Shown here: positions 3,711 to 64,000 of the stretch, piece after piece
Layout of the letters: each line of letters begins with the position of its first letter
Numbering within the stretch: the first letter of the stretch is position 1
NCBI GenBank assembly: GCA_021802055.1
Contig: JAKAAY010000004.1
Location: forward strand, 16,177 to 80,176
Length of the DNA stretch: 64,000 bases
From: Thermoplasmata archaeon
Lineage (GTDB): Archaea; Thermoplasmatota; Thermoplasmata; Thermoplasmatales; Thermoplasmataceae
Direction of reading: 5' to 3'
Translations under genes and position numbers: made by a program
The notes under the pieces: generated by a model
What the model saw: the letters and a program-made list of their open reading frames with translations, nothing else
Told to the model about the DNA's origin: nothing
The model's database searches: none

Positions 3711-4208
3711 ATGGAGAAAAAGAGAGCCAGCGAATCGCAGGTGAGTCTGCACAGAATGGTCCTGCCGGAAGATACCAATGTACTGAACGGCCTCTACGGA
3801 GGAAAGCTCATGGAATGGATTGATAACGTCGCGTCAATAATCGCAGCCAAACATGCCAGAAAACAGTGTGTGACAGGGAGTGTTGACAGCATGTTTTTCC
3901 TGTCTCCCATAAACCTCGGAGACATAGTGCACTTGGACGGCAGGATCACCTACGTTACCAGAGAGACCATGGAAGTTGAGATCAGCGTTTTTTCAGAGGA
4001 TACACTGTCGGGGCAGCTACGGTTTACCACCTCTGCACATCTGACATACGTGGCCATCGATGAGAACAGGAAACCCACGCCAGTACCTGGACTCATTGTG
4101 GAGACCGATGAGGAAAAGGCCAGATGGAAGGAGGGAGAGGAGAGAAGCAGAAACAGGAAAAAACTTCTTGAGCAGGTCAGGGAAAGAAAGAAGAAAATGA
4201 CATTTTAA
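3711..4208 (+). CDS. Acyl-CoA thioesterase (hotdog fold, YciA/ACOT7-like)
   Basis: HRMVLPEDTNVLNGLYGGKLMEWIDNVASIIAAKHA...VTGSVDSMFFLSPINLGD matches the acyl-CoA hydrolase pattern. ATG 3711 was chosen because it avoids overlap with the permease. Confidence 0.8.
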   Translation: MEKKRASESQVSLHRMVLPEDTNVLNGLYGGKLMEWIDNVASIIAAKHARKQCVTGSVDSMFFLSPINLGDIVHLDGRITYVTRETMEVEISVFSEDTLSGQLRFTTSAHLTYVAIDENRKPTPVPGLIVETDEEKARWKEGEERSRNRKKLLEQVRERKKKMTF

Positions 4209-4213
4209 ATAAA
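4203..4213 (+). promoter_or_regulatory. TATA-box-like element upstream of the VirB2-like gene
   Basis: TTTTAAATAAA is centred about 25 nt upstream of ATG 4233. This is the same geometry seen at several other genes in this window. Confidence 0.45.
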
Positions 4214-4232
4214 CAGATACTATTTCGCCGAA

Positions 4233-4514
4233 ATGTCATTTAGTACACTAATTGCAATAATGACAACCTCGGCAAATTCTACCCAGATCGCCCAGATTAT
4301 GGATCGGGTGTACGAGGTTGTCGCATCTGTATCGGCCATTCTCATAGCCATACTCTGGATCCCCATAGCACTGAATTTCTTCAGCGACGACGAGGACAAG
4401 CGCTATTCCGCGAAACTGAGGCTAAAGAATGCTTTCATAGGCACAGTGATTTATGTTCTCGCCATGTCCGGGACGCTCTATACCATATTCCTTTACCTGG
4501 CAACGGGGTCGTGA
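4233..4514 (+). CDS. Small two-helix membrane protein, VirB2/TrbC/CedA1-like pilin candidate
   Basis: 93 aa. Hydrophobic helix VVASVSAILIAILWIPIALNFF, charged loop SDDEDKRYSAKLRLKN, and second helix AFIGTVIYVLAMSGTLYTIFLYLA. It is the first gene of a tightly coupled four-gene unit. Confidence 0.55.
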   Translation: MSFSTLIAIMTTSANSTQIAQIMDRVYEVVASVSAILIAILWIPIALNFFSDDEDKRYSAKLRLKNAFIGTVIYVLAMSGTLYTIFLYLATGS

Positions 4515-4595
4515 ATCCTGCTGGCATCGGAGGTCGCCTCCATCATTGGCGACATTATTTCTTTCTTCGATGGCGCTTACATTGCTTCCGCTTCC

Positions 4596-5558
4596 TTGCT
4601 CTGGAACGTGGTGGTTACTTACGGGCTTGCTCCCAAGTACGCCTATGAGATGCTCATAGAAGGAAACACAGGCATCTTACAGTTCTATGGATTCCTGACT
4701 TCAAGCATATACGTATATGCTGCAGGGCTTGCCATAATCATCCTTTCCATATACATGCTTGTATCCAACTCGCTGGGTAGTCCCACTTCCCCGGCGAACC
4801 TGATGATCAGGTACCTGCTTGCGCTCACAGTATCCCTATTTTCGATCCAGATCTGCAGGGTGATTCTTTCCGCTTCATTTGCCGCATTTTCAGTGGTATG
4901 GAACGGCAGTGGAACAGACTGGTACAACCTTACGGGCATTCTCGACTATGGATCCCAGGTACAGGGTCCGGCAGGCAGCGCCTCATCGATCATAACGTTT
5001 CTCTTTCTTTCGGCACTGTTCTTCTCTATCATAGCACTCCTGGGAACCCTGGAGATCCGCCAGGCAATCCTGATCTTCATGATACTGGTGCTGCCTCTGT
5101 TCTCCATCATGTTTGCCTTCCAGAAGACAGAAAAATATGCGGTTGCGATGTGGAAAATGTTTGCTGAACTTTCCATCCTCCCATTCTTCGTCCTGGTAGT
5201 CCTTGAGGCCATGAGCTTTTTCCAGGGGGATTTTCCCCTGCAGCTGGCTCTTCTGTTCCTCAGTTCCGCTCTTCCGTTAATTCTCATGAGCAATAGCAGG
5301 ATTTTTTACTCCTCCATCTTGGGTTCAATGTTTGAGGGAATCTCAGCTGAAAACGTTGCATCAAGAGTTTCAGGTTTCTCCGGAGCCTTCAGTGCGGTGA
5401 CCAAGGCCGGGGATGCAACATCAGCACTCTCAAGCCTGACAGGTTTCCGATTGTCGCATGAAATGAAGGGACTCAGCGGACCATATACGTCTCCTGAAAC
5501 ACCGCTGGACTGGAGCAAGGTGTACGCAAGTGAACTTGCGTACAGGAGTGGGGATTAA
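4596..5558 (+). CDS. Polytopic membrane protein (about 6-7 TM), VirB6/TrbL/CedA-like candidate
   Basis: 320 aa with repeated long hydrophobic segments and a Ser/Gly-rich cytoplasmic tail. It shares the frame of the preceding gene, separated by one TGA and 27 open codons, so the start is uncertain (TTG 4596 or further upstream). Confidence 0.5.
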   Translation: MLWNVVVTYGLAPKYAYEMLIEGNTGILQFYGFLTSSIYVYAAGLAIIILSIYMLVSNSLGSPTSPANLMIRYLLALTVSLFSIQICRVILSASFAAFSVVWNGSGTDWYNLTGILDYGSQVQGPAGSASSIITFLFLSALFFSIIALLGTLEIRQAILIFMILVLPLFSIMFAFQKTEKYAVAMWKMFAELSILPFFVLVVLEAMSFFQGDFPLQLALLFLSSALPLILMSNSRIFYSSILGSMFEGISAENVASRVSGFSGAFSAVTKAGDATSALSSLTGFRLSHEMKGLSGPYTSPETPLDWSKVYASELAYRSGD

Positions 5559-5561
5559 CCC

Positions 5562-6272
5562 GTGACAGAAGATACACCGTTTCCATCAAACGTTCTTGAC
5601 TATGGGAGCAGGATACTTGGGATGTCCTATGAGAGGGTCGTGATGGTCGTCCTAACGGTGTGCATCTCCTCGGTGCTGATGGAAATTAGCTATTTTGCAG
5701 CAATTCTCTTTACAGTGATGGTCTTTCCGCTGGTCCTGATCTCCAGGGATGACACCCCGCTGTATTCAGCAGTGCTTAGGGCGGTCGTATATCACACCGC
5801 CCCAAAGAGAGCCGAGATTCACACACATTATTCAAGAATCACATCAAGGAACTGCATAATCGCCTTCCATGGAAGATTGCTTTCCATCACAGGCATTGCT
5901 CAGAGATCCATTTTGAGGCTTGGAGACTCAGAGAGGGCCTCAGCCATTACACTGATGGAGAAAACGTTCAATTCCATGGGTACAGATGCGATCTTTCTTA
6001 GCATCCCGGTGGACTCAAGCAGAGTTCCTCTACCTGCGTTTTCGGGTGGTGGGAATATCAATCAGCTGGAGGATTATGAGAATCTTGTAGCACACGCATG
6101 CAGAGGCAGTTTTTATCAGTCGGCATACGTGATACTTACCGGACATGAGGTGAATCAGACCACCCTGGAAAACGAGACCGCAGGTGTCAGACGCTACCTG
6201 GAGAGCTATGGCTTTGCCTGCAGGGATCCGGGAGAAGAGGAGACTCTGGAGTGCCTCAGTTTCCTGGAGTGA
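5562..6272 (+). CDS. VirB3-like TM hairpin fused to a soluble domain of about 150 aa
   Basis: GTG start 3 nt after the previous stop, preceded by GGAGTGGGG (SD-like). The N-terminus carries two TMs followed by SRDDTPLYSAVLRAV, resembling the VirB3 pattern of two TMs followed by RD. The rest is a soluble domain. Confidence 0.45.
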   Translation: MTEDTPFPSNVLDYGSRILGMSYERVVMVVLTVCISSVLMEISYFAAILFTVMVFPLVLISRDDTPLYSAVLRAVVYHTAPKRAEIHTHYSRITSRNCIIAFHGRLLSITGIAQRSILRLGDSERASAITLMEKTFNSMGTDAIFLSIPVDSSRVPLPAFSGGGNINQLEDYENLVAHACRGSFYQSAYVILTGHEVNQTTLENETAGVRRYLESYGFACRDPGEEETLECLSFLE

Positions 6273-6276
6273 AACA

Positions 6277-7665
6277 ATGGATCATTTGCACGGGGATCAC
6301 GGAAGGGAACGTTCCACTGTCTTTCACGTCAGGCGGTACTATCTATCGGGAAAGAAGCATTATGCATTTCTCTCGCTGAATAACGTGGCAGAAAACCGTA
6401 TCAAGATGATCTATGAACTCATCGACGGGCTAAGTTTTCCAGTATACACTAGGGTGGTGATGAAAAGATATCCTGACGTGAAGGCTAGATCCATACTCAA
6501 GAGAATTGGCGCGGACAGGATTTCGGATCAGCGCCTGACCTCGGAAAGCAACAGACCACTGAAAAATAAGCTGGAAATCCAGCTGCGTTCACTCGAGCTT
6601 CTCAGCATGAGGGTCACACGGGATGGCGACGCACTCTTTCAGGTGTCGATGACATTTGTTGTTTCAGGATCTCACCCCGCAGATCTCAATGGAAACCTCC
6701 GGAGGTTCGCCCGTGCAATGTCCCTGCTTGGTTTTGACCTGACACACGAACCTGTGATTTCAAGGCGCAGGGTCGGAAAGCTCGTCAACCCCCTTGGTAG
6801 CCATGGTTCAAGATACATCATGGACAGCAGATCCGTATCCTCCATAATCCCCCTGTACTATGAGAGTAATCCACCCAGGAGCGGTCTACTGCTGGGGATA
6901 GATGCAGAAAGCGAGAAGCCGGTATTCGCCGACCCGTTTGGAGGGAATTCCTACAACTCGGTTGTGGTTGGAGAGACAGGCAGCGGAAAATCATTCTTCT
7001 CAAAACTACTGCTGATGCGAGCGCTTCTGACAGGTATGGCAGAAAGCGTTCTGGTCATAGACCCGATGGGAGAATATGGATCGGGACTGTTTTCTCAATC
7101 CTCCACAGTCATAGGAGAGGAAGACCTGATTTCCGCAAACGGGAAGATCATAGACAAGGCTTCGTTCAGCAGATTGAACATAATCAGGCAGTCTCCTGAC
7201 GAAATGGAGCGAAGGTCGGACCTGCTTGAGGCAACCATTGATATCACAAACAGGTTTCTCAGGTCAGGTAATGGAGCGAGGAAGATCATTCTCATAGACG
7301 AGGCACATACATACTTCAAATCCGCCCGGACAACCAGCTACCTGGACGCAATCTACAGGAGTTCACGTCACTACAATGCTTCAGTGATAAGCATAAGTCA
7401 GAACCTGGAAGATTTCACGGGAACGTCAGAGGGAAAATCCATGCTTTCAAACAGCAGTATGAACTTCATTTTCAGGAACAAAGACAGGCAGAGGAACGGA
7501 ATAAGCTTCCTAACCTCCAGCAGATTTGGCGAGATGCGGACAGACCTCCTGCCAGGAGGGAAAAGAGATCCATACTCCGAGTGTTATTTCTACCGAGACG
7601 GCATGCTACGAAGATTGAGGATTATCTGTACCACAAGGGAAGCTGAACTGATCGGTCATTCATGA
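6277..7665 (+). CDS. VirB4/TraC/TrbE/CedB-family secretion ATPase (FtsK-HerA superfamily)
   Basis: Walker A is VVVGETGSGKSF and Walker B is KIILIDEAHTYF. RSSRHYNASVISISQNLEDF and SNSSMNFIFRN resemble VirB4 motifs C and D. ATG 6277 lies 4 nt after the upstream stop and has a GGAGTGA SD-like sequence. Confidence 0.7.
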   Translation: MDHLHGDHGRERSTVFHVRRYYLSGKKHYAFLSLNNVAENRIKMIYELIDGLSFPVYTRVVMKRYPDVKARSILKRIGADRISDQRLTSESNRPLKNKLEIQLRSLELLSMRVTRDGDALFQVSMTFVVSGSHPADLNGNLRRFARAMSLLGFDLTHEPVISRRRVGKLVNPLGSHGSRYIMDSRSVSSIIPLYYESNPPRSGLLLGIDAESEKPVFADPFGGNSYNSVVVGETGSGKSFFSKLLLMRALLTGMAESVLVIDPMGEYGSGLFSQSSTVIGEEDLISANGKIIDKASFSRLNIIRQSPDEMERRSDLLEATIDITNRFLRSGNGARKIILIDEAHTYFKSARTTSYLDAIYRSSRHYNASVISISQNLEDFTGTSEGKSMLSNSSMNFIFRNKDRQRNGISFLTSSRFGEMRTDLLPGGKRDPYSECYFYRDGMLRRLRIICTTREAELIGHS

Positions 7666-7965
7666 AGAGCGTTCTTCTTCAATGTCCTTCTCGTGCATCA
7701 GGAGAAGAGTCAAGAGGCCAAATACAACTACGGGCGCAACAAAGGAATACAGGCCTATGTCTGTCCACGTCCCATAAATTATGGACCATCCAACGTAGAA
7801 TGATAGACCAAGTACCACCAGAAACAGCCCGAAAAACCTGTATATGTTCCTTACCGTGATCTTTGGAAGTGGGATCATGCTTGTAAGCCTGGGCCTGGTT
7901 GAAGTTTTTGACTCCTCGATCTGCCTTTCCGGCGTCTCCCTCCGCTCCATTTTACGGAGTGCCAT
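7660..7965 (-). CDS. Small membrane protein (charged N-terminus plus 2 TM), unknown function
   Basis: C-terminal IYRFFGLFLVVLGLSFYVGWSII...VAPVVVFGLLTLLLM forms two clear TMs. It is convergent with the VirB4-like gene and overlaps it by 6 nt. A TATA-like TTAATTATA at 7975-7983 favours a start at ATG 7965 or 7950. Confidence 0.5.
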   Translation of the reverse strand: MALRKMERRETPERQIEESKTSTRPRLTSMIPLPKITVRNIYRFFGLFLVVLGLSFYVGWSIIYGTWTDIGLYSFVAPVVVFGLLTLLLMHEKDIEEERSS

Positions 7966-8039
7966 AGATACACTATAATTAACAGTTTTGGTGTCTGCAC
8001 TGAGGCGATGTCTGGAGCGAAGGGTACTTAGCACTTGTG

Positions 8040-8500
8040 AGCGGGAAACCCCCCACCCATTTCATGGCGGGACGGGACAAACTGCTTATCGAACACGCAC
8101 AGGATGCATCCATTGGCATGCCAGATGGTTATACCCGTTCCCGTACATTGGTTCATTCCACGGACTGTCACCCTGACCGGTGCTAAAGATACAGGAGAAC
8201 GTTAATCGTCACTGTAAACGCAGGTGCGGTTGTAATACCGACCCGCCCCAAGAACATGTCCGGAAGATGCTCAGCATGCGGAAACATAACACATGAGCCG
8301 GGATTAACGGACAGGATGTGCCTCTGGAGCCTGACCATAGACAGAGAGATCAAAGCCGCAATAATATCCACAATGCAGGACTGTGTCAGGGAGGGAAACG
8401 CCACAAGATACGCTCGTGGAGAACAGAGATCTACCAACGCTAACGCGCTCACTGAAATCGGAAGGCCATTATTTCAAGAGCGGGTTTCACCTTAAGATCC
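8040..8500 (+). pseudogene. tnpB: Relic of the 3' half of an IS200/IS605-type tnpB gene plus a decayed right end
   Basis: Broken frames read LLIEHAQDASIGM (compare VVIEDLNVSGM), CSACGNITHEPGLTDRMC...IDREIKAAII (compare CSKCGNIKHDLKLSDRIYHC...MDRDLNAAKNI) and SLKSEGHYFKSG (compare SVKQEPHTLQGW, the +1-frame reading of the 3' end/RE of the copy at 55694-56866). Confidence 0.6.
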
Positions 8501-24270: not shown

Positions 24271-24903
24271 TCACGTGGGCAGGAGAGAATATGGAATAAA
24301 ACCGAGATATGCTGGAAGCAGTGGGATCATTGCATACAGCGAAATGTGTATGGCTATGTCAGAGTATATGTTTCCCCTGAGATAGTATAAGGCACCATAG
24401 AGCATTCCCATGCCAAACATATCGAGGAAGAACAGCGGAAGAAATAATCCGGGATACCCTGCTGTTTCGAAAATAACATAGGATGAGTACAGCGCTGTAA
24501 AGGCAATGGCCTGCAAAATCACTGCCCTGCCTCTGCCAGCATAAGCCGAGATCTTGTTCTGGAATACGAAGCGGAAATTGAGCTCGTCGATGAAGGCGTA
24601 TGGAAAAAATAGCCCCCAGGGACTCAGGCCGAGATACAGCCAGGCGATACCCCAGCCAATGATGACGACGATCAGAATGATGAGATCGCTGGAAACTATT
24701 AGTGACCTGAGTTTGTCACGTAGAGCCGGATCTGTAAGGCACAGACCCAGAAGCAGAACGGGCGTGATATATACATAAAATCCGTAGAAGAGGCCTGCCA
24801 AACCTGAACTGCGTTCGAACGCCAGGGTACCGAAAAACGTGCCGAATAAGAAGGCCTCGACCAGGATGAAGTAGAGAAGGAATCTGTTTTCAGCCATAGT
24901 CAT
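24271..24903 (-). CDS. Polytopic membrane protein, possible CPBP (CAAX) family intramembrane protease
   Basis: IDELNFRFVF resembles CPBP motif 1 (EExxxR) and a late AIHISLY resembles motif 3. The match is only partial. It is the last gene of the oxidase operon. Confidence 0.35.
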   Translation of the reverse strand: MTMAENRFLLYFILVEAFLFGTFFGTLAFERSSGLAGLFYGFYVYITPVLLLGLCLTDPALRDKLRSLIVSSDLIILIVVIIGWGIAWLYLGLSPWGLFFPYAFIDELNFRFVFQNKISAYAGRGRAVILQAIAFTALYSSYVIFETAGYPGLFLPLFFLDMFGMGMLYGALYYLRGNIYSDIAIHISLYAMIPLLPAYLGFIPYSLLPT

Positions 24904-26339
24904 GCAGCCCTTGCCGCGGCTACCCTGCTCAGGGCAGCGTTAGTCGTGATCCACAGCAGAGGGTAGGATAAAGCCACAAGGACGATTGAAAAGAAAAATA
25001 CCTCAGATGCTCCGAATGAGGCCCATGGAGAATACCCAAACTCTGCCGTATAGTAGAGCATGACAAGGGCAAGCAGGCTGATCATCATGGCAATGGTCTC
25101 CCAGTAAATCCCCCTGGATTTTGTACTGATGGTGGAGTAAACGAAACCCGTTCCAAGGCCGGCTGCAAATGTAACAAGGATCATCACTCCATAGAGAACG
25201 AAGTTCTGCAGCACGCTGGCAACAAGCGGGGGAATGAACCATACAAACATTGCAGTAGAGCACAGGGTGAAGATTCCGGAAGCCATTAATGTACCCGGTT
25301 TGAGGTTGAGATTTGCCACCTTCGCAAGGATTATGAAGAAAAGCATGCCATCGAGGTACATGACGATGTTCATGCCAAAGAAGAAGTATATGGTGTACTG
25401 CCACCCAAGCAAGCTGCCATAAATCAGCAGGATAATGGGAGCAAGTAGCAGAATGGCATATATTGGAGCCTTCATGGAGGTCTGCTCCCTATGTCTCTCG
25501 AAGGGTGGAAAGCCTCGGTTCCTCAGGAAATAGGTCTGAAGGAGCAGGTTTGTCATCACCACCAGAATGGCGCTTTCTGCTATCAATGGAATGAATATGA
25601 GGTTGACTACAAGGGATGCCAGCGATGGCAGTGCAGCCAGAATGCCCTCGCACTGGCATGAAAACAGCACGAGACCTGAACCCACCAGGTCTGGTCTGAG
25701 ATATCTCCCGGTTCCTGAGACCAGATTATAGATCATCGAGAAATTCTGGGTAATGACTGACGCCAGAAAACCCGTAAGCAGGAGGTAAACGGGGCTCAGC
25801 GTCATGACAAGGTGCCCTGAAGATACATAGTCGCTGTAGGCGAAAAGGGCTGGGACTCCTGCAGGGTTCTCATCATCATAAATGGACCCCAGGATGATGT
25901 TATTCACACTGACCGGTTCGTATCTGATGATGCCGGATATGAAAACAAACAGGAATTCTATCCCCACGAACAGTGCCAGAACAATAAAATTGCGCCTTCC
26001 CGGGTACCTGTCTGCGTACGTGATCAGCGAAACAAGCAACGGCATGATGATAAATGGGGTCGCGATGAGACGCTCATTCAGGAGAAGAAGCACAATGAGC
26101 GAGAAGACAAACGACGCGTGCAGGTACCTGGCGTACGTATGAAGACGTCGGGATGCCACCGAAGCTGGAACAGAGAGGATGAACAGTATGGCCAGCAGAG
26201 CATATAACGTGGGAAGTGCCTGCGGTTCCGTTATGAGATAACCCGAGATGGACTGAAAGTAAAGGTAGAGAACTATTGAAAGATCAGTAAGGATCAGCAC
26301 CAATAGATCTCTGGAAGCAACTTTCATGCAATTATCCAC
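24900..26339 (-). CDS. 479-aa polytopic membrane protein of unknown function in the oxidase operon
   Basis: At least 12 hydrophobic segments and an intramembrane FSCQCEG motif. It is translationally coupled on both sides (4-nt and 16-nt overlaps). Confidence 0.5.
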   Translation of the reverse strand: MDNCMKVASRDLLVLILTDLSIVLYLYFQSISGYLITEPQALPTLYALLAILFILSVPASVASRRLHTYARYLHASFVFSLIVLLLLNERLIATPFIIMPLLVSLITYADRYPGRRNFIVLALFVGIEFLFVFISGIIRYEPVSVNNIILGSIYDDENPAGVPALFAYSDYVSSGHLVMTLSPVYLLLTGFLASVITQNFSMIYNLVSGTGRYLRPDLVGSGLVLFSCQCEGILAALPSLASLVVNLIFIPLIAESAILVVMTNLLLQTYFLRNRGFPPFERHREQTSMKAPIYAILLLAPIILLIYGSLLGWQYTIYFFFGMNIVMYLDGMLFFIILAKVANLNLKPGTLMASGIFTLCSTAMFVWFIPPLVASVLQNFVLYGVMILVTFAAGLGTGFVYSTISTKSRGIYWETIAMMISLLALVMLYYTAEFGYSPWASFGASEVFFFSIVLVALSYPLLWITTNAALSRVAAARAA

Positions 26340-27184
26340 CAGATGGAAACCAAAAGCACCAGGAGGTAGAGGTTTGAGAAGTGAAATGCTTGCTTGAAGG
26401 AAGATGCTGCCAGGTTCTTAACATAGATGGCCACCATAAAGTAAATGAGTATAGCATCGAGGATTATTGCCACGAAAAAATATGCCGTCCCCACCGCAAG
26501 TTCAGGAAGAAAGAATGGCAGGAGACTGTAGATGACCATTATGCCTGAGTTAGCAACGATGTATCCAAAAGCCCTGTTTTCCGGGACAAGCGACGGGAGC
26601 ATGGGTACCCCTGCCGATGTGTAGTCCTTCTTTGTCCCCATGGCAAGGCTCCAGAAATGAGTGGGAGTCCAAACAAAGACAAGGAGTGCTATATAAATGG
26701 CCGTCAAGGAAACCGAACCTGTGACCGCGGACCATCCTGCGAGGGCAGGGAAGCTACCGGCTATGCCTCCTATGACAATATTTAGCGACGTCCTTCTCTT
26801 CAGAACCATTGTATAAAGAAGGACATAGCTGACGAAGCCTCCCAGGATGAAGAGAAGCGTGAGTAAATTTATCAGGAAATATGCAACTGCGCTGGCAAAA
26901 ATAAGAATAATCGATGAATATGCGATGAACCTCCTGTAATTCTCCTGGTTGACTATGTTGCTTCTGTAGGAGGTCCTTGCCATTATGACATCTATATCCC
27001 TGTCGTATATGTTATTGAAAAGGGATGCAGAAATGGATGACAGCCCTCCGGCCACAAGCAGGGGCAGAAGTATTATGAGTCTCGTCGAGGCACCCGGAGC
27101 AGCAAGAAAGCCTGTTACTGCGACTACCAGTATGAGAAAAGTGATCTCGGCCTTGGTGATCCTAATTATATCTCTTAGGCTCAT
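26324..27184 (-). CDS. ctaB: Protoheme IX farnesyltransferase (heme O synthase)
   Basis: UbiA-family motif NNIYDRDIDVIMARTSYR. ATG 27184 (MSLRDIIRITK) was chosen because the longer ORF overlaps the sulfocyanin-like gene. Confidence 0.85.
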   Translation of the reverse strand: MSLRDIIRITKAEITFLILVVAVTGFLAAPGASTRLIILLPLLVAGGLSSISASLFNNIYDRDIDVIMARTSYRSNIVNQENYRRFIAYSSIILIFASAVAYFLINLLTLLFILGGFVSYVLLYTMVLKRRTSLNIVIGGIAGSFPALAGWSAVTGSVSLTAIYIALLVFVWTPTHFWSLAMGTKKDYTSAGVPMLPSLVPENRAFGYIVANSGIMVIYSLLPFFLPELAVGTAYFFVAIILDAILIYFMVAIYVKNLAASSFKQAFHFSNLYLLVLLVSIWWIIA

Positions 27185-28736
27185 TGACCGTACCTGAGAG
27201 GACGTATGTATACTGGGTTCCACTGTTTTCCGATGGATATGCATACATATGAGTAAAAGGTATTGCAACAGATGCAGAAGCACTGGTTTCGTTTGTAACA
27301 TTGATACTGGATACAGCTGATGATGGGTGATATGTATCGAAGTAGGTATAAGTTCCATACATTTGGAACAGGAAGTAGCCGAAGGAGGTTTTCACAGTGC
27401 TGTTTACTGAAGTTACATTCTCAGTGGTTCCTGCATATGGAAGGTTGCCATATGATATTGCCAGCGTATGATTAAGTCCGTCCCCATTGATCAGTGTGAA
27501 ATTGACCATCGTCCCCAGAGTCAGGTTGAAAACAGGATTCACAGATCCCACAGAATAATTCCAGCCCAAGTGGTTTGCATAAAGCGTAATGTTCCGGAGG
27601 TGCTCATAATACAGGATGTTCCCAGTGGAGCCACTGGTAACCTTGTTGTCGATAAGGGTAACTTTTGTGAAGTTGTATGATGCAATTTCAACGCTGGTTG
27701 ATGCATTTGTGGTTGAGACCAAAGTACCGTTCGATACTGCAGAGTAACGGTCCGAGGAAACCATGACAGAGTAGTTCAGTTTGGATGTATCCTCAAAATG
27801 CAGGACAACGGCGGTTGAAATGGCCACTGGTAAAGTCCAGTTTCGGGTGCCGCCTGTCACAAGGCCAAGATCGGTCACCGCAATCGAGGCTGTACTGGTG
27901 CTCCTGGTGATGAAGATGTGACCAACTGTCTTCGAGGGATAATATGAATCCCAGTAGGTGAATTCTTCAGTTGTGTTAAAGTACAGGTTAACCGATACTG
28001 ATCTCCCGTTCGTTGTGCCAATTTCCGTGGCATTAATTACCGTGGAGTTGAAACTGGAAACGTTGTCACCTGGGGCAACAATAAAGTCGTGCATACTGGT
28101 TCCATTCTGGATGATCGTGAAATTCACGAGACTATCGTTCCCAAAGAAGAGGTTTGGATTTGTACCATTGCTGCTGGTGAATCCAGAATTTGTTGCGGTC
28201 AGCGATACATGTGCGGTAACGGTGGCGCTTGAAGGGGGAGTTGGGAATTTATAAACATTAGACGGAAGTGAGGACACCACATTTATAAGGCCAACCATTG
28301 TGGTTGGATGTATGGTGCACCAGTAAGTGAAGACTCCCACTGTGTCGAAATAAGCGGTTACGTATGATATGTGACCGGGAGTGGTTGTGATCTGTGAGGT
28401 GGAAAGCAGGGTATCGGAATAACTGGATTCTGAAGAACCAGGGTTGATGGTAAGAGTATGTGGTTGATTGTCCTCCTCTATAACAGTAAAGTGAACAAGC
28501 GTGCCATTGAGGATAGTAATGGTTGGGTTGCTTGGTCCGTGAAGGTAGTCCCATCCACTGGCATCGGCATATAAGGTGATGTTGACTTCATGTGGGGGAT
28601 GCGCGGGAGCAGAGGGTAAGGAGAAAGTCTGAGATACAGGATAATTCACTGTGGTGAATAGCGTGGCGCCCATTGCAAGCAGGATAATGACTGCAAAAAT
28701 TACTCCAACAAGTTTACCTGCGGCCTTATCATTCAT
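27162..28736 (-). CDS. Multidomain sulfocyanin-like blue copper protein (N-terminal TM anchor plus repeated cupredoxin modules)
   Basis: The first module has a complete T1 Cu set (QPHTL ... YWCTIHPTTM). Later modules repeat the fold signature (NITLYA..GW.Y...NP....GT.V.FT.I....HTL) but read YWDSYYPSK and YFDTYHPSS. ATG 28736 lies 1 nt after the coxI stop. Confidence 0.75.
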   Translation of the reverse strand: MNDKAAGKLVGVIFAVIILLAMGATLFTTVNYPVSQTFSLPSAPAHPPHEVNITLYADASGWDYLHGPSNPTITILNGTLVHFTVIEEDNQPHTLTINPGSSESSYSDTLLSTSQITTTPGHISYVTAYFDTVGVFTYWCTIHPTTMVGLINVVSSLPSNVYKFPTPPSSATVTAHVSLTATNSGFTSSNGTNPNLFFGNDSLVNFTIIQNGTSMHDFIVAPGDNVSSFNSTVINATEIGTTNGRSVSVNLYFNTTEEFTYWDSYYPSKTVGHIFITRSTSTASIAVTDLGLVTGGTRNWTLPVAISTAVVLHFEDTSKLNYSVMVSSDRYSAVSNGTLVSTTNASTSVEIASYNFTKVTLIDNKVTSGSTGNILYYEHLRNITLYANHLGWNYSVGSVNPVFNLTLGTMVNFTLINGDGLNHTLAISYGNLPYAGTTENVTSVNSTVKTSFGYFLFQMYGTYTYFDTYHPSSAVSSINVTNETSASASVAIPFTHMYAYPSENSGTQYTYVLSGTVNEPKRYN

Positions 28737-28737
28737 A

Positions 28738-30417
28738 TCAGGCATCAACTCCAGGGACCGCAAACGGTTTCTCCAGTATTGACTCGTCAGATGTTGTCGG
28801 CTCTTTGAGCCAGCTCATTGCAAAGTTGGCAAGGAATACCAGTTGCCCTATTCCAATTATGACTCCGCCTATGATTGAAGCATCCTGATATGCCTGGAAC
28901 CAGCTGAAGTACCCAGCAACTGCCCTAGGCATCCCCAGAAACCCTCCCACGGCCCAGGCCGTTGACATGAGCATGGACCCAATAGCGGTCAGGTAAAAAT
29001 GTACCCTGGCCAAGAGTACATTATACATCCTTCCCCCTGTGATCAGTGGGAAGAGCAGGTAAACCGCAGCCATCGTTATGCCCACAGTTATTCCCATAAA
29101 TATGAAGTGAAAGTGGGCAGTAACCCAGTAAGTCCCATGAACCAGCTGGTTTACGGGCTGATAAACCTGCATTACACCGGTTATACCACCTATTATGAAA
29201 TCTATAATTCCGTTCAGGACAAAGAGCATGGGAGTGGTAAGCCTGATCTTGTTGGCCTGCCAGAACGTTGCAATCCAGTTGAAAACGGTGATTGCCGACG
29301 GTATCACGACGATGAAAGAGGTGGTTTCAAACAGGATATCCCAGGCCACTCCAAGACCTGAGTTAAGAAGGTGATGGCCGAATACGGTCATACTTAGAAT
29401 GGTGAGCAATCCCAGACCAAGTACACCGGATCTGTAACTGTAAATGCTGGTGCCTGTGAATCTTGGAATAATCTCGTAGATGATTCCAAAATAAGGAATG
29501 ACAGCAATGTACACAATAGGATGGCCCCACCACCAGAACAGGATCAAAAAAAGCAGGACGTTGTGGGCTGAAGCCGTGAAGAATATGGGAGCATAATAAT
29601 CATACATCAGCATCGTTAAACCCACAAGAATGGGCGGGATTGAGACTATCATCATCAGGGCGGTGTCAAGAATGCTCCATGAAAACAGAGACATCTTGCC
29701 AAGCTTGATATCCTTGCTTCTGTCGAACAGGATGATCTGGACAATGACTATGGCGACGATCAAAAGGCCGATAAATATGAAGATCATTCCAAGAATGCCC
29801 ATCCAGGCAAAGAGTCCGCCCCCATTCTGACTGAGCTGAAGTGAAAGCGGAGGGTACAGATACCATCTGAAGGATGATCTGGACAACAGGAATATTATTG
29901 CACCGAAGAGCCAGATCCAGTAGGCAATGGAAGAATAACCGCCCCGGCCGTCTCTTGTGAGATTAAGATGGGAAGGCAACAGGTAGTAACCAAGACCCAC
30001 AGCAGCTCCTACGGCCCACATATAAATCATGAGTGTTGCATGTTCTGTTAGAAGGATGTTGTAGGCGTCTGGAGTAAGGAATGTAAAAAATGTCTGTGGA
30101 ACGTTGTATGTTAGACTGAGTCTCATCCCCAGTCCGAACGTTCCTGCTATGAAAAAGAACAAAATGGAGGTGAGAAGGTACCTTAGTCCAAGGCTTCTTG
30201 CGTCATTGTCTACCATGATATTCCATGATATTCTTCTTTTCTTGTTAGCAACAAAATCCCTGTAGAACTGTGCCGTGCTTTGATAGCCTCGTTCTCTGGC
30301 CATTTCAGCAAGTTTAGCCTTCCTGTCGGCTATAATATAGTAGATTGCAAACGCGACAATACCTATAAGGGACAGGATTACACCGGATGTCAGCATTAGG
30401 GTTGAATAATCTGCCAT
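28738..30417 (-). CDS. coxA: Heme-copper oxidase subunit I
   Basis: WWWGHPIVYI, WVTAHFHFIFMG and 12 or more TMs. Confidence 0.9.
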   Translation of the reverse strand: MADYSTLMLTSGVILSLIGIVAFAIYYIIADRKAKLAEMARERGYQSTAQFYRDFVANKKRRISWNIMVDNDARSLGLRYLLTSILFFFIAGTFGLGMRLSLTYNVPQTFFTFLTPDAYNILLTEHATLMIYMWAVGAAVGLGYYLLPSHLNLTRDGRGGYSSIAYWIWLFGAIIFLLSRSSFRWYLYPPLSLQLSQNGGGLFAWMGILGMIFIFIGLLIVAIVIVQIILFDRSKDIKLGKMSLFSWSILDTALMMIVSIPPILVGLTMLMYDYYAPIFFTASAHNVLLFLILFWWWGHPIVYIAVIPYFGIIYEIIPRFTGTSIYSYRSGVLGLGLLTILSMTVFGHHLLNSGLGVAWDILFETTSFIVVIPSAITVFNWIATFWQANKIRLTTPMLFVLNGIIDFIIGGITGVMQVYQPVNQLVHGTYWVTAHFHFIFMGITVGITMAAVYLLFPLITGGRMYNVLLARVHFYLTAIGSMLMSTAWAVGGFLGMPRAVAGYFSWFQAYQDASIIGGVIIGIGQLVFLANFAMSWLKEPTTSDESILEKPFAVPGVDA

Positions 30418-62532: not shown

Positions 62533-64000
62533 TCAGTATTCGGTTATTCCAAGTTCGCTCAGGACTCCGTCCCGATCCTTGTAGAATTTTATTATCATCC
62601 TGGTAACGTCCTTGTAAGTGTAGAATTTCTTCTCGATCATCTTATTGATGATGGTCTCCCTGAGATCGACCTCTCTCTCAAGATCCGCTTCAGACTTACC
62701 TATCCTTTCCGCAATACGGTTCATGGCATAGCTGAACCCTGAGAATGTAAAGTCGTCATTGACGTTGTTCCACTTGAATATGTTGTTGACTATGATGTCG
62801 TTCGTGGAGGGATCGAGCCCCGTGATCTCGGAGACGCTTGTCGCCCTTCTGACGATTTTTCCCTTGTAAGTAAGCTGGGACTGCATGATGATCACATCTA
62901 GTGCGGTGATCAGCGTCCTTGGGATGTTGATGGGTGGAGACTCAAGCCTGTGTATTAGGGTCTTCGGATCCTCTGCGTGGAATGTTCCGAATCCGTACCT
63001 GCCCGCGGACATGGCCTGGAAAACCGTGAATGCCTCCTTCCCCCTCACTTCTCCTATGATGATATAGTTTGGCCTCTGCCTGAGGGAGGCGGCCAGCAGA
63101 TCAAACATGTCTATCTCCCCGCCCCTCTTGCCTGTATCCCTGTTGAGGGCACCGAATCCCGGCCTGGTAACGCCTGCTATCCAGTTCTCATGGGGGATGT
63201 TAATCTCTCTTGTATCCTCAATGCTCACGATCTTCATCTGTGGGGGAATAAAGAGCAGAATGGCATTGAGCAGTGTTGTCTTCCCCGAACCGGTGCCTCC
63301 TGCAACCATCATGTTGGAGCCGTATTCCGTGAGAACCCATAGGTATCCAAATATTCTCGCAGAAACGGAACCCCCCATCACGAGGCTCACAGGGCTCAGT
63401 GGATTGCTCTTGAACTTCCTTATGGTGAAAGCCGGACCATTGTTCGTTATGTACCTGCCAAGCGAGGCCTGCAGCCTGGAACCGTCAGTGAGTGTCGCGT
63501 CAATGATTGGAATGGATATGGATATGTGCTTTCCCGAATTCTGAACCATTCTCTTGACATAGGTGTTCAGCACGTCTTCAGACCTGAAGATGACATTGGA
63601 AGGAATATATCCCTGTACCCTGTGGAAAATGTATACAGGAACGTTGGGAGCATCACATGATACGTCCTCTATGTTCTGATCAAGCATGAGCCCATTGATC
63701 TTATCAAAACCCACTATGTCTCTTTCCACGTAATACTTGATGACGATCATTTCGCTCTTTGAGCGGTCTATCTTCAGATCCTTGATGATGTGGGCATATA
63801 TCACCTCGAAGTCCTTCTTCTTGTCCTTGGAGGTCAGGGTCTCGTCTGCTACCCTGAAGTAGAATTCTGCCTTGATCTGCTCTATGATCTCTATGAGTTC
63901 ATCATCAACATAGGGTTCAATGAGGTGATACACCGTCTCCTTGGTGCCCCTGTCAACAAATACCCGGGAATATACCATTGATGGTACGATCTCGTCAAAT
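62533..64000 (-). CDS. Type IV pilus/archaellum assembly ATPase (FlaI/ArlI/PilB, GspE family), 5' end beyond the window
   Basis: Walker A VAGGTGSGKTTLLNA, Asp box SIEDTREI, Walker B IIIGEVRG and His box GTFHA. The frame stays open upstream of ATG 63978 to the window edge (FDEIVPS...). Confidence 0.85.
   Translation of the reverse strand, partial: FDEIVPSMVYSRVFVDRGTKETVYHLIEPYVDDELIEIIEQIKAEFYFRVADETLTSKDKKKDFEVIYAHIIKDLKIDRSKSEMIVIKYYVERDIVGFDKINGLMLDQNIEDVSCDAPNVPVYIFHRVQGYIPSNVIFRSEDVLNTYVKRMVQNSGKHISISIPIIDATLTDGSRLQASLGRYITNNGPAFTIRKFKSNPLSPVSLVMGGSVSARIFGYLWVLTEYGSNMMVAGGTGSGKTTLLNAILLFIPPQMKIVSIEDTREINIPHENWIAGVTRPGFGALNRDTGKRGGEIDMFDLLAASLRQRPNYIIIGEVRGKEAFTVFQAMSAGRYGFGTFHAEDPKTLIHRLESPPINIPRTLITALDVIIMQSQLTYKGKIVRRATSVSEITGLDPSTNDIIVNNIFKWNNVNDDFTFSGFSYAMNRIAERIGKSEADLEREVDLRETIINKMIEKKFYTYKDVTRMIIKFYKDRDGVLSELGITEY

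Follow-up and report, generated by a model that had tools for sequence, protein, structure and literature searches.

The subject of this analysis is a compact cluster of five genes in a 64,000-nucleotide stretch of a Thermoplasmata archaeon (assembly GCA_021802055.1, contig JAKAAY010000004.1, positions 16,177 to 80,176 of the forward strand), referred to here as the window. The cluster is best explained as a five-gene minimal derivative of a type IV secretion system (T4SS) of the monoderm or archaeal type (MPF-FATA-like). Four co-directional open reading frames (ORFs) lie within 4233-7665 of the forward strand, separated by 81, 3 and 4 nt, and a fifth meets them from the opposite strand. The features are listed below, with transmembrane segments abbreviated as TM.

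4204..4213, forward strand: TATA-like promoter box TTTAAATAAA, 29 to 20 nt before the ATG of ORF1; predicted promoter.
4233..4514, forward strand: ORF1, 93 aa, predicted VirB2-type pilin of the T4SS_pilin family (Pfam PF18895).
4512..4595, forward strand: the TGA of ORF1 (4512-4514) and the 27 in-frame codons behind it, which correspond to the conserved N-terminus of ORF2.
4515..5558, forward strand: ORF2, about 347 aa, 6-7 TM, probable distant TrbL/VirB6 relative; counted from a canonical start (TTG), it spans 4596-5558 and has 320 aa.
5562..6272, forward strand: ORF3, 236 aa, GTG start, predicted VirB3/PrgI-like hairpin and first part of the VirB4 N-domain.
6277..7665, forward strand: ORF4, 462 aa, ATG start (the frame opens at 6184), predicted rest of the VirB4 N-domain and C-terminal ATPase domain.
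7660..7950, reverse strand: ORF5, 96 aa, two-TM core, convergent with ORF4, assigned to the module by co-inheritance.

An original prediction, made from the DNA letters alone, had described four of these ORFs, and their coordinates, the three gaps, the GGAG motifs (upstream of ORF3 at 5545 and of ORF4 at 6266) and the upstream TATA box were all recovered as claimed. The 81-nt gap was likewise correctly reported in length and as open in frame; however, it is not a spacer, and encodes the conserved N-terminus of ORF2. Hydropathy profiles give two TM segments for ORF1, six to seven for ORF2 and two for ORF3.

ORF4 carries a Walker A motif (GETGSGKS, 6970-6993) and a Walker B motif (IDEAH, 7294-7308), and its identification as a VirB4-type ATPase was borne out by both sequence and fold. 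It passes the Pfam AAA_10 cutoff (54 bits against 27.5), and its best NCBIfam models are those of the Mycoplasma VirB4 (VirB4_plasma, 4e-26), CD1110 (2e-23) and TraC (2e-20). The CedB model NF041017 gives only 30.2 bits against a cutoff of 700 (2e-7), the CedD model NF053655 26.3 bits against a cutoff of 600, and HerA also falls far behind the VirB4 models. Since ORF4 reaches no equivalog cutoff in NCBIfam, its profile matches place it in a new VirB4 subfamily rather than as the orthologue of any named one. When the profile of the ATPase family was run against the Protein Data Bank (PDB), the VirB4 C-terminal domain 4AG5 was found at 2e-25; HerA-type structures scored no better than 5e-10 and matched just the P-loop.

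These results bear on a different reading of the gene, namely that it encodes a HerA/FtsK-type translocase standing beside unrelated membrane proteins. Public records name the proteins "DUF87 / HerA domain-containing" or hypothetical, ORF4 does match Pfam DUF87 (E=5e-11), and the fold search lists HerA-type structures from E=3e-11 onwards. That search was run with an AlphaFold (AF2) model of a naturally fused orthologue, P0019 (mean pLDDT 69), and not with the ORF3 and ORF4 of the window themselves. Its top 13 matches are all TrwK/VirB4 chains of R388 (E=3e-23 to 3e-18, 660-760 aligned columns), covering the full length of the model including the N-domain, and HerA, FtsK and VirD4-type ATPases start only at 3e-11. 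The neighbouring genes, moreover, are independently recognisable as T4SS_pilin and TrbL/VirB6 relatives. A HerA/FtsK identity is thus ruled out by the PDB profile search, Foldseek and the identity of the neighbours, and we leave it practically no chance. The original prediction had itself named a HerA placement as the outcome that would overturn it; profile, PDB and Foldseek searches all preferred VirB4.

The alignment of ORF4 begins at residue ~215 and ends at ~745 of bacterial VirB4 proteins of ~780 aa, so the preceding region would be supplied by ORF3. In four related loci the two form one fused protein of 631-692 aa, with whose first ~240 residues ORF3 is collinear:

L008, 1268-3343: fused VirB4 gene.
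L014, 9284-11320: fused VirB4 gene.
L016, 3949-6024: fused VirB4 gene.
L021, 9269-11161: fused VirB4 gene.

ORF3 opens with a hairpin of two TM segments (residues 18-36 and 42-60) followed by SRDD, as had been noted when it was compared with VirB3. That comparison was right as far as it went, but the protein is more than a VirB3, as it also holds the first part of the VirB4 N-domain. Direct searches with ORF3 alone returned little: a match to positions 35-168 of VirB4_plasma (E=0.02), none in Pfam, and, for the family profile against PDB sequences, chance matches only. Alignment by hhalign of the ORF3 family with the N-termini of Firmicutes VirB4 proteins fell in the correct register and was not significant (P=0.012). 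An iterated ORF3 profile reached the gene just upstream of virB4, as well as the N-termini of fused VirB4 proteins, in loci of Patescibacteria, Clostridia, Nanoarchaeota and Bathyarchaeia; within this set a PrgI (VirB3-like) domain is found at E=3e-8 in locus L038, and other members match TrsD, TraC_F_IV or positions 1-125 of a VirB4 model. In the P0019 model, the position of the ORF3/ORF4 split falls in a low-confidence linker (residues 212-238). Because the fused orthologues are collinear with the two genes, the fused model matches TrwK over its full length and the split lies in a linker, we regard ORF3 and ORF4 as a single VirB3-VirB4-type motor whose N-domain has been cut within a loop. 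Fused forms are scattered over the ATPase tree, its deepest branches included; the fusion is therefore probably ancestral, and the scatter implies more than one event of splitting or re-fusion.

The pilin candidate is recognisable from its own sequence. ORF1 exceeds the cutoff of the Pfam T4SS_pilin family PF18895 (28.8 bits against 26.6, E=1.3e-6), all 14 of the 14 collected family members match the same model (best 1.2e-7), and the next-best curated match is a pilin-like protein of Mycoplasma integrative and conjugative elements (ICEs; NCBIfam Mbov_0395, E=2e-5). The VirB2-type architecture that had been proposed for it was thereby upheld. Its TM segments occupy residues 22-40 and 69-87, and the family shares a variable N-terminus of ~20 residues and two strongly conserved hydrophobic helices with a charged S-x-DE-x-KR loop between them. 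It is the most conserved component of the cluster, with a mean column identity of 52% and a ratio of nonsynonymous to synonymous substitution rates (dN/dS) of 0.01. By profile, ORF1 is a member of the T4SS_pilin family, and polymerisation into a pilus is predicted. Searched against all PDB sequences, the family profile found only chance matches (cytochrome oxidase, E>=0.3) and no similarity to CedA1 or TedC.

Between ORF1 and ORF2 the gene boundary is unusual. In all related loci ORF2 begins within a few nt of the stop of ORF1, with conservation of its first ~27 residues. In the window, and likewise in a relative whose ATPase is 88% identical (L090), a 1-nt deletion relative to locus L004 places the corresponding 27 codons (4515-4595) in frame directly behind the TGA of ORF1. 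ATG, GTG and TTG are all absent from these codons, and L090 reads CTT where the window has the TTG at 4596. Over the 81 nt, the window and L004 differ at ~19 nucleotides with just 3 amino-acid changes, and dN/dS against L090 is ~0.1, which argues that the stretch is coding. The sequence leaves two options for the start of ORF2, namely near-cognate initiation or reinitiation (at ATC 4515, or CTG 4518 or 4521), or read-through of the TGA, which would give a pilin-VirB6 fusion. A -1 frameshift from the upstream ATG at 4453 into the ORF2 frame was considered and is unlikely, as a slippery sequence is absent at the required position. A relationship between the pilin and the N-terminus of the channel protein has been reported for both the CedA1/CedA and the VirB2/VirB6 pairs; the comparison of ORF1 with the N-terminus of ORF2 gave no significant similarity.

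ORF2 had been called VirB6/TrbL-like with 6-7 TM segments, and this was sustained at the level of family profiles. Direct searches found no Pfam or NCBIfam match at E<=1 and no PDB sequence match, and hhalign of the family against the single TrwI/VirB6 sequence of R388 gave no signal. Weak matches to TrbL (PF04610) are present in 3/23 family members. Word-index searches, with a single sequence or with a 14-sequence profile, returned 2-3 matches, and 1.84 billion representative proteins were instead searched exhaustively with HMMER. There, the family profile finds 143 proteins: a compact family of 40 clusters at E<=1e-10, and about 100 weaker matches that are nevertheless significant library-wide. 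Among 70 distant matches, TrbL/VirB6 is recognised in 14 (best 1e-9) and TrbL_4 in 2, with no other family recurring; the TrbL domain overlaps the stretch that matches ORF2, and an R-x11-P motif, invariant in the ORF2 family, is shared. When the family was aligned by hhalign with five TrbL-positive proteins, a probability of 98.2% was obtained (E=3.5e-14, 156 columns). In all related loci, the gene adjoins those of the pilin and of VirB4. On account of these profile links, its 6-7 hydrophobic segments and its fixed place between the pilin and virB4 genes, ORF2 is assigned as a distant TrbL/VirB6-type protein.

Proteins related to ORF2 were also observed outside the class. In loci of Nitrosopumilaceae with a VirB4 gene, a 7-TM protein of ~540-635 aa is encoded several kb downstream, and its central ~230 residues belong to the ORF2 family by iterated hidden Markov model (HMM) search. 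The Pfam scan of three of these proteins (L031, L034 and L056) gave no match. In Nitrosopumilus loci the ORF2-like domain sits within a protein of ~620 aa.

L031, 16470-18347: 7-TM protein of Nitrosopumilaceae.
L034, 13618-15522: 7-TM protein of Nitrosopumilaceae.
L037, 14523-16406: 7-TM protein of Nitrosopumilaceae.
L042, 12532-14148: 7-TM protein of Nitrosopumilaceae.
L056, 12915-14756: 7-TM protein of Nitrosopumilaceae.

ORF5 joins a variable tail to a two-TM core that is highly conserved and has the pattern FY.WSI.Y.TW.D.GLY. It meets ORF4 tail to tail, with both TGA stops inside the palindrome TCATGA (7660-7665), and an overlap of this kind, 4-6 nt long, recurs in relatives; since the stop codons overlap, the convergent transcripts of the two genes must overlap as well. 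In related core loci ORF5 comes immediately after the ATPase gene, also where the genes further on are different. No relationship to Pfam, PDB or the pilin family was found. Its co-inheritance suggests that it is the fifth gene of the module, and its position recalls that of CedA2, by analogy only. The neighbours had originally been given as a thioesterase upstream and a small membrane protein, a tnpB relic and mptD downstream: the thioesterase and mptD stand, the small membrane protein is ORF5 and belongs to the module, and the tnpB relic lacks profile support.

There is, all the same, a lineage-specific insertion of ~500 nt (~7997-8493) between ORF5 and mptD, whose flanks are 38 nt apart in L090. 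A 79-aa ORF at 8256-8495 in this insertion contains CSACG...DR..C...IDREIKAAII, which resembles the C-terminal zinc-ribbon/RuvC-III region of TnpB by eye; Pfam, Rfam, plasmid and repeat searches gave no support for a relic, and it was set aside.

The distribution of the cluster was followed by tracing related ATPases, at 88, 70, 41-39 and 36-28% identity, to their contigs and to GTDB species representatives. The same five genes occur in the same order in ~18 lineages, among them the cultured Oxyplasma meridianum M1, with ATPases down to 28% identity, an arrangement far beyond chance given this recurrence. The shared order extends to the surroundings and reads MarR, RpiA, (ABC transporter), thioesterase (4HBT), ORF1, ORF2, ORF3, ORF4, ORF5 (reverse strand), DHNA/mptD, NTPase, TRM, UbiA, PcrB, PurS and PurL. 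Divergent copies were found in Ca. Sysuiplasma and three other Thermoplasmata metagenome-assembled genomes (MAGs), where an ORF2-like gene still adjoins the ATPase; two such copies with scanned flanks lie among the genes of HMG-CoA reductase, FtsY, enolase, CysRS and topoisomerase I. In the ATPase tree (a neighbour-joining distance tree of 339 columns with 200 bootstraps and a Firmicutes root, from which R388 TrwK was left out as not alignable to the family HMM), the syntenic Thermoplasmata sequences form one clade with 98% bootstrap, nearest to the divergent Thermoplasmata copies (62%) and then to other archaeal VirB4 proteins. ATPase identity and the identity of flanking housekeeping proteins are correlated in the direction that fits vertical descent, although not significantly (rho=0.44, p=0.12, n=14).

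One divergent Thermoplasmata MAG shows a further feature: at L022, positions 39-2492, an 817-aa ORF without Pfam match precedes a complete module and overlaps the start of the pilin gene by a few nt; it could be an additional component there.

Selection and regulation were examined at the same loci. Against L090 (dS ~0.4-0.6), dN/dS is 0.01 for ORF1, 0.10 for ORF2, 0.19 for ORF3, 0.09 for ORF4 and 0.15 for ORF5, compared with 0.06 for the neighbouring thioesterase. In nearly all loci a TTTA[A/T]ATA[A/C] box precedes the ORF1 start at a constant distance (~-30 to -22), which points to a promoter of the operon's own and to a leaderless or near-leaderless transcript; in the window the box overlaps the stop codon of the thioesterase gene. 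Purifying selection and the conserved TATA box together argue for a maintained cellular operon and not for the remnant of an ICE.

Signs of mobility were sought in parallel. No relaxase, VirD4-type protein, integrase or replication gene was found among the scanned large ORFs of the window, and the Pfam-annotated flanks of ~20 related loci likewise showed neither a relaxase nor a VirD4-type protein nor an integrase, in agreement with the original prediction; nor were the related genomes seen to carry the cluster always inside a larger ICE-like element, an outcome named in advance as speaking against it. Around the cluster only short chance repeats were present, with no flanking att direct repeats. 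PLSDB plasmids hold no close relative of the ATPase, the best being of the Sulfolobus pNOB8 type, with ~27% identity over 71% of ORF4.

Decay of an ICE could still be read from the split ATPase gene and the start-less VirB6 gene. ORF3 and ORF4 are indeed one gene in some relatives, the 1-nt deletion deprives ORF2 of a canonical start, and the lineage-specific insertion adjoins the module. However, all five genes are under purifying selection, the 27 start-less codons included; the split is common to many lineages, lies in a flexible linker and has kept an SD-like (Shine-Dalgarno-like) motif and an ATG; the promoter is conserved and the housekeeping synteny holds down to 28% ATPase identity; and integrase, att repeats and anomalous composition were not found. 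A decaying remnant is for these reasons very improbable, and the best explanation of the sequence comparisons is a module that is chromosomally fixed and vertically inherited within Thermoplasmata.

The rest of the window is ordinary chromosome, with genes for Hsp70, EF-2, NFACT, a haem-copper oxidase and purine and isoprenoid metabolism. GC content is ~0.49 and flat along the window. The immediate neighbours of the cluster are the 4HBT thioesterase gene upstream and, downstream, the small membrane protein gene ORF5 and then the DHNA/mptD gene. Two tRNAs are present, both distant from the cluster, the closest 34 kb off. The window is identical in sequence to a contig of the Thermoplasmatota MAG GCA_023487875.1, and the same sequence recurs across many samples. 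An origin in Methanomassiliicoccales, which mptD had suggested, was rejected, because the window encodes a haem-copper oxidase and its record is that of a Thermoplasmatota MAG with Oxyplasma among its relatives. At its far end a T2SSE-family secretion ATPase of the type IV pilus/archaellum class is encoded (62533-63978, reverse strand; Pfam E=3e-31), where a type IV filament locus may begin. Beside COX1, two ORFs of 479 and 533 aa (24900-26339 and 27162-28763, reverse strand) have no Pfam match at E<=0.001.

A working model can be proposed from these parts. The operon would be transcribed from its own TATA-box promoter, probably as a leaderless transcript, and would yield a VirB2-type pilin (ORF1), a VirB6-type membrane channel (ORF2) and a VirB4 motor in two polypeptides, ORF3 providing the membrane hairpin together with the N-domain's first half and ORF4 its second half and the ATPase, with ORF5 as a small accessory protein of two TM segments. 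A VirB4 hexamer would, by analogy with T4SS inner-membrane complexes and the R388 structures, dock through the VirB3-like hairpin on the VirB6 channel. Driven by ATP, the motor would pull pilin from the membrane into a pilus and move a substrate over the single membrane of mostly wall-less cells. The likeliest substrate would be chromosomal DNA, swapped within the population for recombination or repair and imported as in the Ced and Ted systems, because the module matches these importers in composition and has no mobile functions attached to it. That the parts assemble, that a pilus forms and that the substrate is DNA are all inferred here by analogy.

That the cluster is a maintained, non-mobile T4SS derivative built of these parts is very likely. 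For the whole statement, chromosomal DNA exchange included, we see the chances as about even, on the strength of analogy. Several observations weigh against it. The AlphaFold model of ORF2 (pLDDT 37, from an alignment of 3 sequences) is unusable with respect to channel architecture, and in the present lineage a canonical start codon is missing from ORF2. Unlike Ted, the locus has no nuclease, helicase, ParA or Rad50 neighbour, and the functional analogy with Ced and Ted is one of composition, no protein being a Ced member at the sequence level. A VirD4-family ATPase is reported to be encoded elsewhere in Cuniculiplasma genomes (PMC5155288), which would fit export or conjugation equally, and the related relaxase-less chromosomal T4SSs of Patescibacteria are suspected of roles other than DNA transfer (PMC12102498, PMC12857230).

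The first of the resulting alternatives is that the machine works on the donor side, pushing chromosomal DNA to neighbouring cells with a VirD4-type ATPase encoded elsewhere, like the T4SS of wall-less mycoplasmas. The best curated matches of ORF1 and of ORF3/ORF4 are precisely the pilin-like protein and the VirB4 of Mycoplasma ICEs, which are similarly minimal and move chromosomal DNA (PMC12857230); the separate ATPase reported in Cuniculiplasma is of the TraG/VirD4 family (PMC5155288), and some Ced components also contribute to export in Saccharolobus (PMC11868833). Coupling protein and relaxase are nevertheless absent from the window and from ~20 related loci, and both characterised relaxase-less archaeal systems are importers (PMC9905601), which makes donor-side export unlikely.

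We judge just as unlikely that the pilus or channel serves a purpose unrelated to DNA, such as adhesion, biofilm contact, exchange of proteins or lipids, or interaction with Micrarchaeota epibionts. A structural surface role would fit the pilin's place as the most conserved component, DNA-processing neighbours are absent from the locus, epibiotic growth of Patescibacteria requires their related chromosomal, relaxase-less T4SS, which is not known to move DNA (PMC12102498, PMC12857230), and cryo-electron microscopy of Thermoplasmatales from acid mine drainage shows pili connecting cells (PMC3750248). Those pili, however, were attributed to type IV pilus genes and not to a T4SS cluster; sets of VirB4, VirB6 and VirB2 are ancestrally machines for DNA transfer, and the sole characterised archaeal derivatives move DNA (PMC9905601).

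Of the readings considered, we thus retain the fixed T4SS derivative that exchanges chromosomal DNA, and a broader form of it can be formulated. This would be a class-wide DNA-exchange machine of wall-less cells, the first in Euryarchaeota-grade archaea, responsible for the extensive homologous recombination observed in populations of acid-mine Thermoplasmatales and with pilin and VirB6 translationally linked in the present lineage; taken together, these claims are doubtful. Documentation of high recombination in Ferroplasma populations dates back to 2004-2007 (PMC2704941), and no proposed mechanism for it was found in the literature searched. The module is a candidate for how Thermoplasmatales exchange DNA. 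The linkage, if true, would set the ratio of pilin to VirB6 or yield a fusion of the two, through TGA read-through or non-canonical reinitiation.

Parts of the system had been seen before. The 2016 Cuniculiplasma paper (PMC5155288) lists clustered "type IV secretion components" in both strains: arCOG04034 (a VirB4), arCOG05369 (a multipass protein), arCOG05340 (a membrane protein) and a further membrane protein restricted to Thermoplasmatales. This cluster is very probably the present module, and the supposition that no such system had been characterised in Thermoplasmata has to be narrowed to that extent, as it was very probably already listed there by arCOG numbers. A VirB4 in "E-plasma" was also noted in a 2023 paper. 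In the literature searched, no paper was found that identifies the pilin, relates a component to VirB6, describes the VirB4 as split, reports the synteny across the class or draws the parallel with Ced and Ted; Thermoplasmata go unmentioned in the Ced/Ted paper (PMC9905601), in the Patescibacteria survey (PMC12102498) and in a 2025 review of T4SS nomenclature. Public annotation hides the module at present. Carriers are cultivable (Oxyplasma meridianum M1 and probably Cuniculiplasma divulgatum), which makes the question testable by genetics, and a small machine of a pilin, a channel, a one- or two-piece motor and one accessory protein, with no wall to cross, would be an attractive minimal model for T4SS structure and pilus biogenesis.

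Among known systems, mobile elements offer some of the nearest sequences. The closest plasmid-borne ATPases are those of Sulfolobus pNOB8-type plasmids, which with thaumarchaeal integrated elements form the sister group in the ATPase tree. In contrast to the module, those elements are mobile, with integrases (e.g. pNOB8) and a VirD4 homologue, and they have no recognised pilin and no housekeeping synteny. The Mycoplasma ICE T4SS (CDS17 VirB4, CDS16 VirB6-like, and small VirB3-like and pilin-like proteins; PMC12857230) supplies the module's best curated matches, Mbov_0395 for ORF1 and the VirB4 Mbov_0397 for ORF3/ORF4, and shares with it wall-less hosts, the absence of VirB1 and VirB8, and a VirB4 with an N-terminal membrane region. 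It differs in that a mobile ICE, equipped with VirD4 and with functions for integration, carries it in hosts from a different domain of life, and the module scores far under the equivalog cutoffs (91 vs 590 bits).

The chromosomal T4SSs of Patescibacteria (PMC12102498) resemble the module in their MPF-FATA-related VirB4, their PF18895 pilin, their lineage-wide distribution and the general lack of a relaxase, and a small gene just upstream of virB4 is related to ORF3 by iterated HMM. They are, however, bacterial, with ATPases outside the Thermoplasmata clade, additional components and a suspected role in epibiotic growth.

Ced of Sulfolobales (CedA1, CedA, CedA2, CedB and CedD/CedE; PMC9905601, PMC11868833) is chromosomal and without relaxase, as is the module, and its gene content is parallel: a small two-TM pilin, a polytopic VirB6-like protein, a second small two-TM protein and a VirB4-related ATPase. 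The differences are considerable. Ced splits the VirB4 N-domain between two paralogous ATPases (PMC11868833), whereas the module has one VirB4, cut in two or intact; its genes are dispersed and induced by ultraviolet light, whereas those of the module form one tight operon; and it operates alongside Ups pili and through an S-layer, a structure absent from most Thermoplasmatales. The label "Ced/Ted-type" that had been given to the cluster therefore holds for gene content and fails for family membership, with the CedB model at 30 bits against a cutoff of 700 and a pilin without sequence similarity to CedA1 and TedC, both solved by cryo-electron microscopy (PMC9905601). By its sequences the module is not a member of Ced.

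Ted of Thermoproteales (TedC pilin, VirB6-like TedA and VirB4-like TedB; PMC9905601) is, like the module, a minimal archaeal T4SS derivative that is chromosomal, relaxase-less and not plasmid-borne. The two share a pilin of VirB2 type, a channel of VirB6 type and a genuine VirB4-type ATPase whose N-domain is complete, and both are conserved within their lineages. The module belongs to a different phylum, Thermoplasmatota, and its pilin has no detectable sequence similarity to the solved TedC; for TedA and TedB the comparison is by description. Ted loci carry ParA-, Rad50- and HerA-like neighbours (PMC9905601), none of which occurs at the module, and the VirB4 of the module has a PrgI/VirB3-like hairpin, split or fused according to lineage, with the two-TM ORF5 as an extra component.

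Ced and Ted, both of hyperthermophilic Thermoproteota, are the only known chromosomal relaxase-less T4SS derivatives in archaea. The module is set apart from them by the lack of a sequence relation, its occurrence in another phylum, a single chromosomal position held throughout the class and hosts that are mostly wall-less. The best reading is that of a third T4SS derivative domesticated independently in archaea, which would make the domestication of conjugation machinery for cellular use a recurrent archaeal theme.

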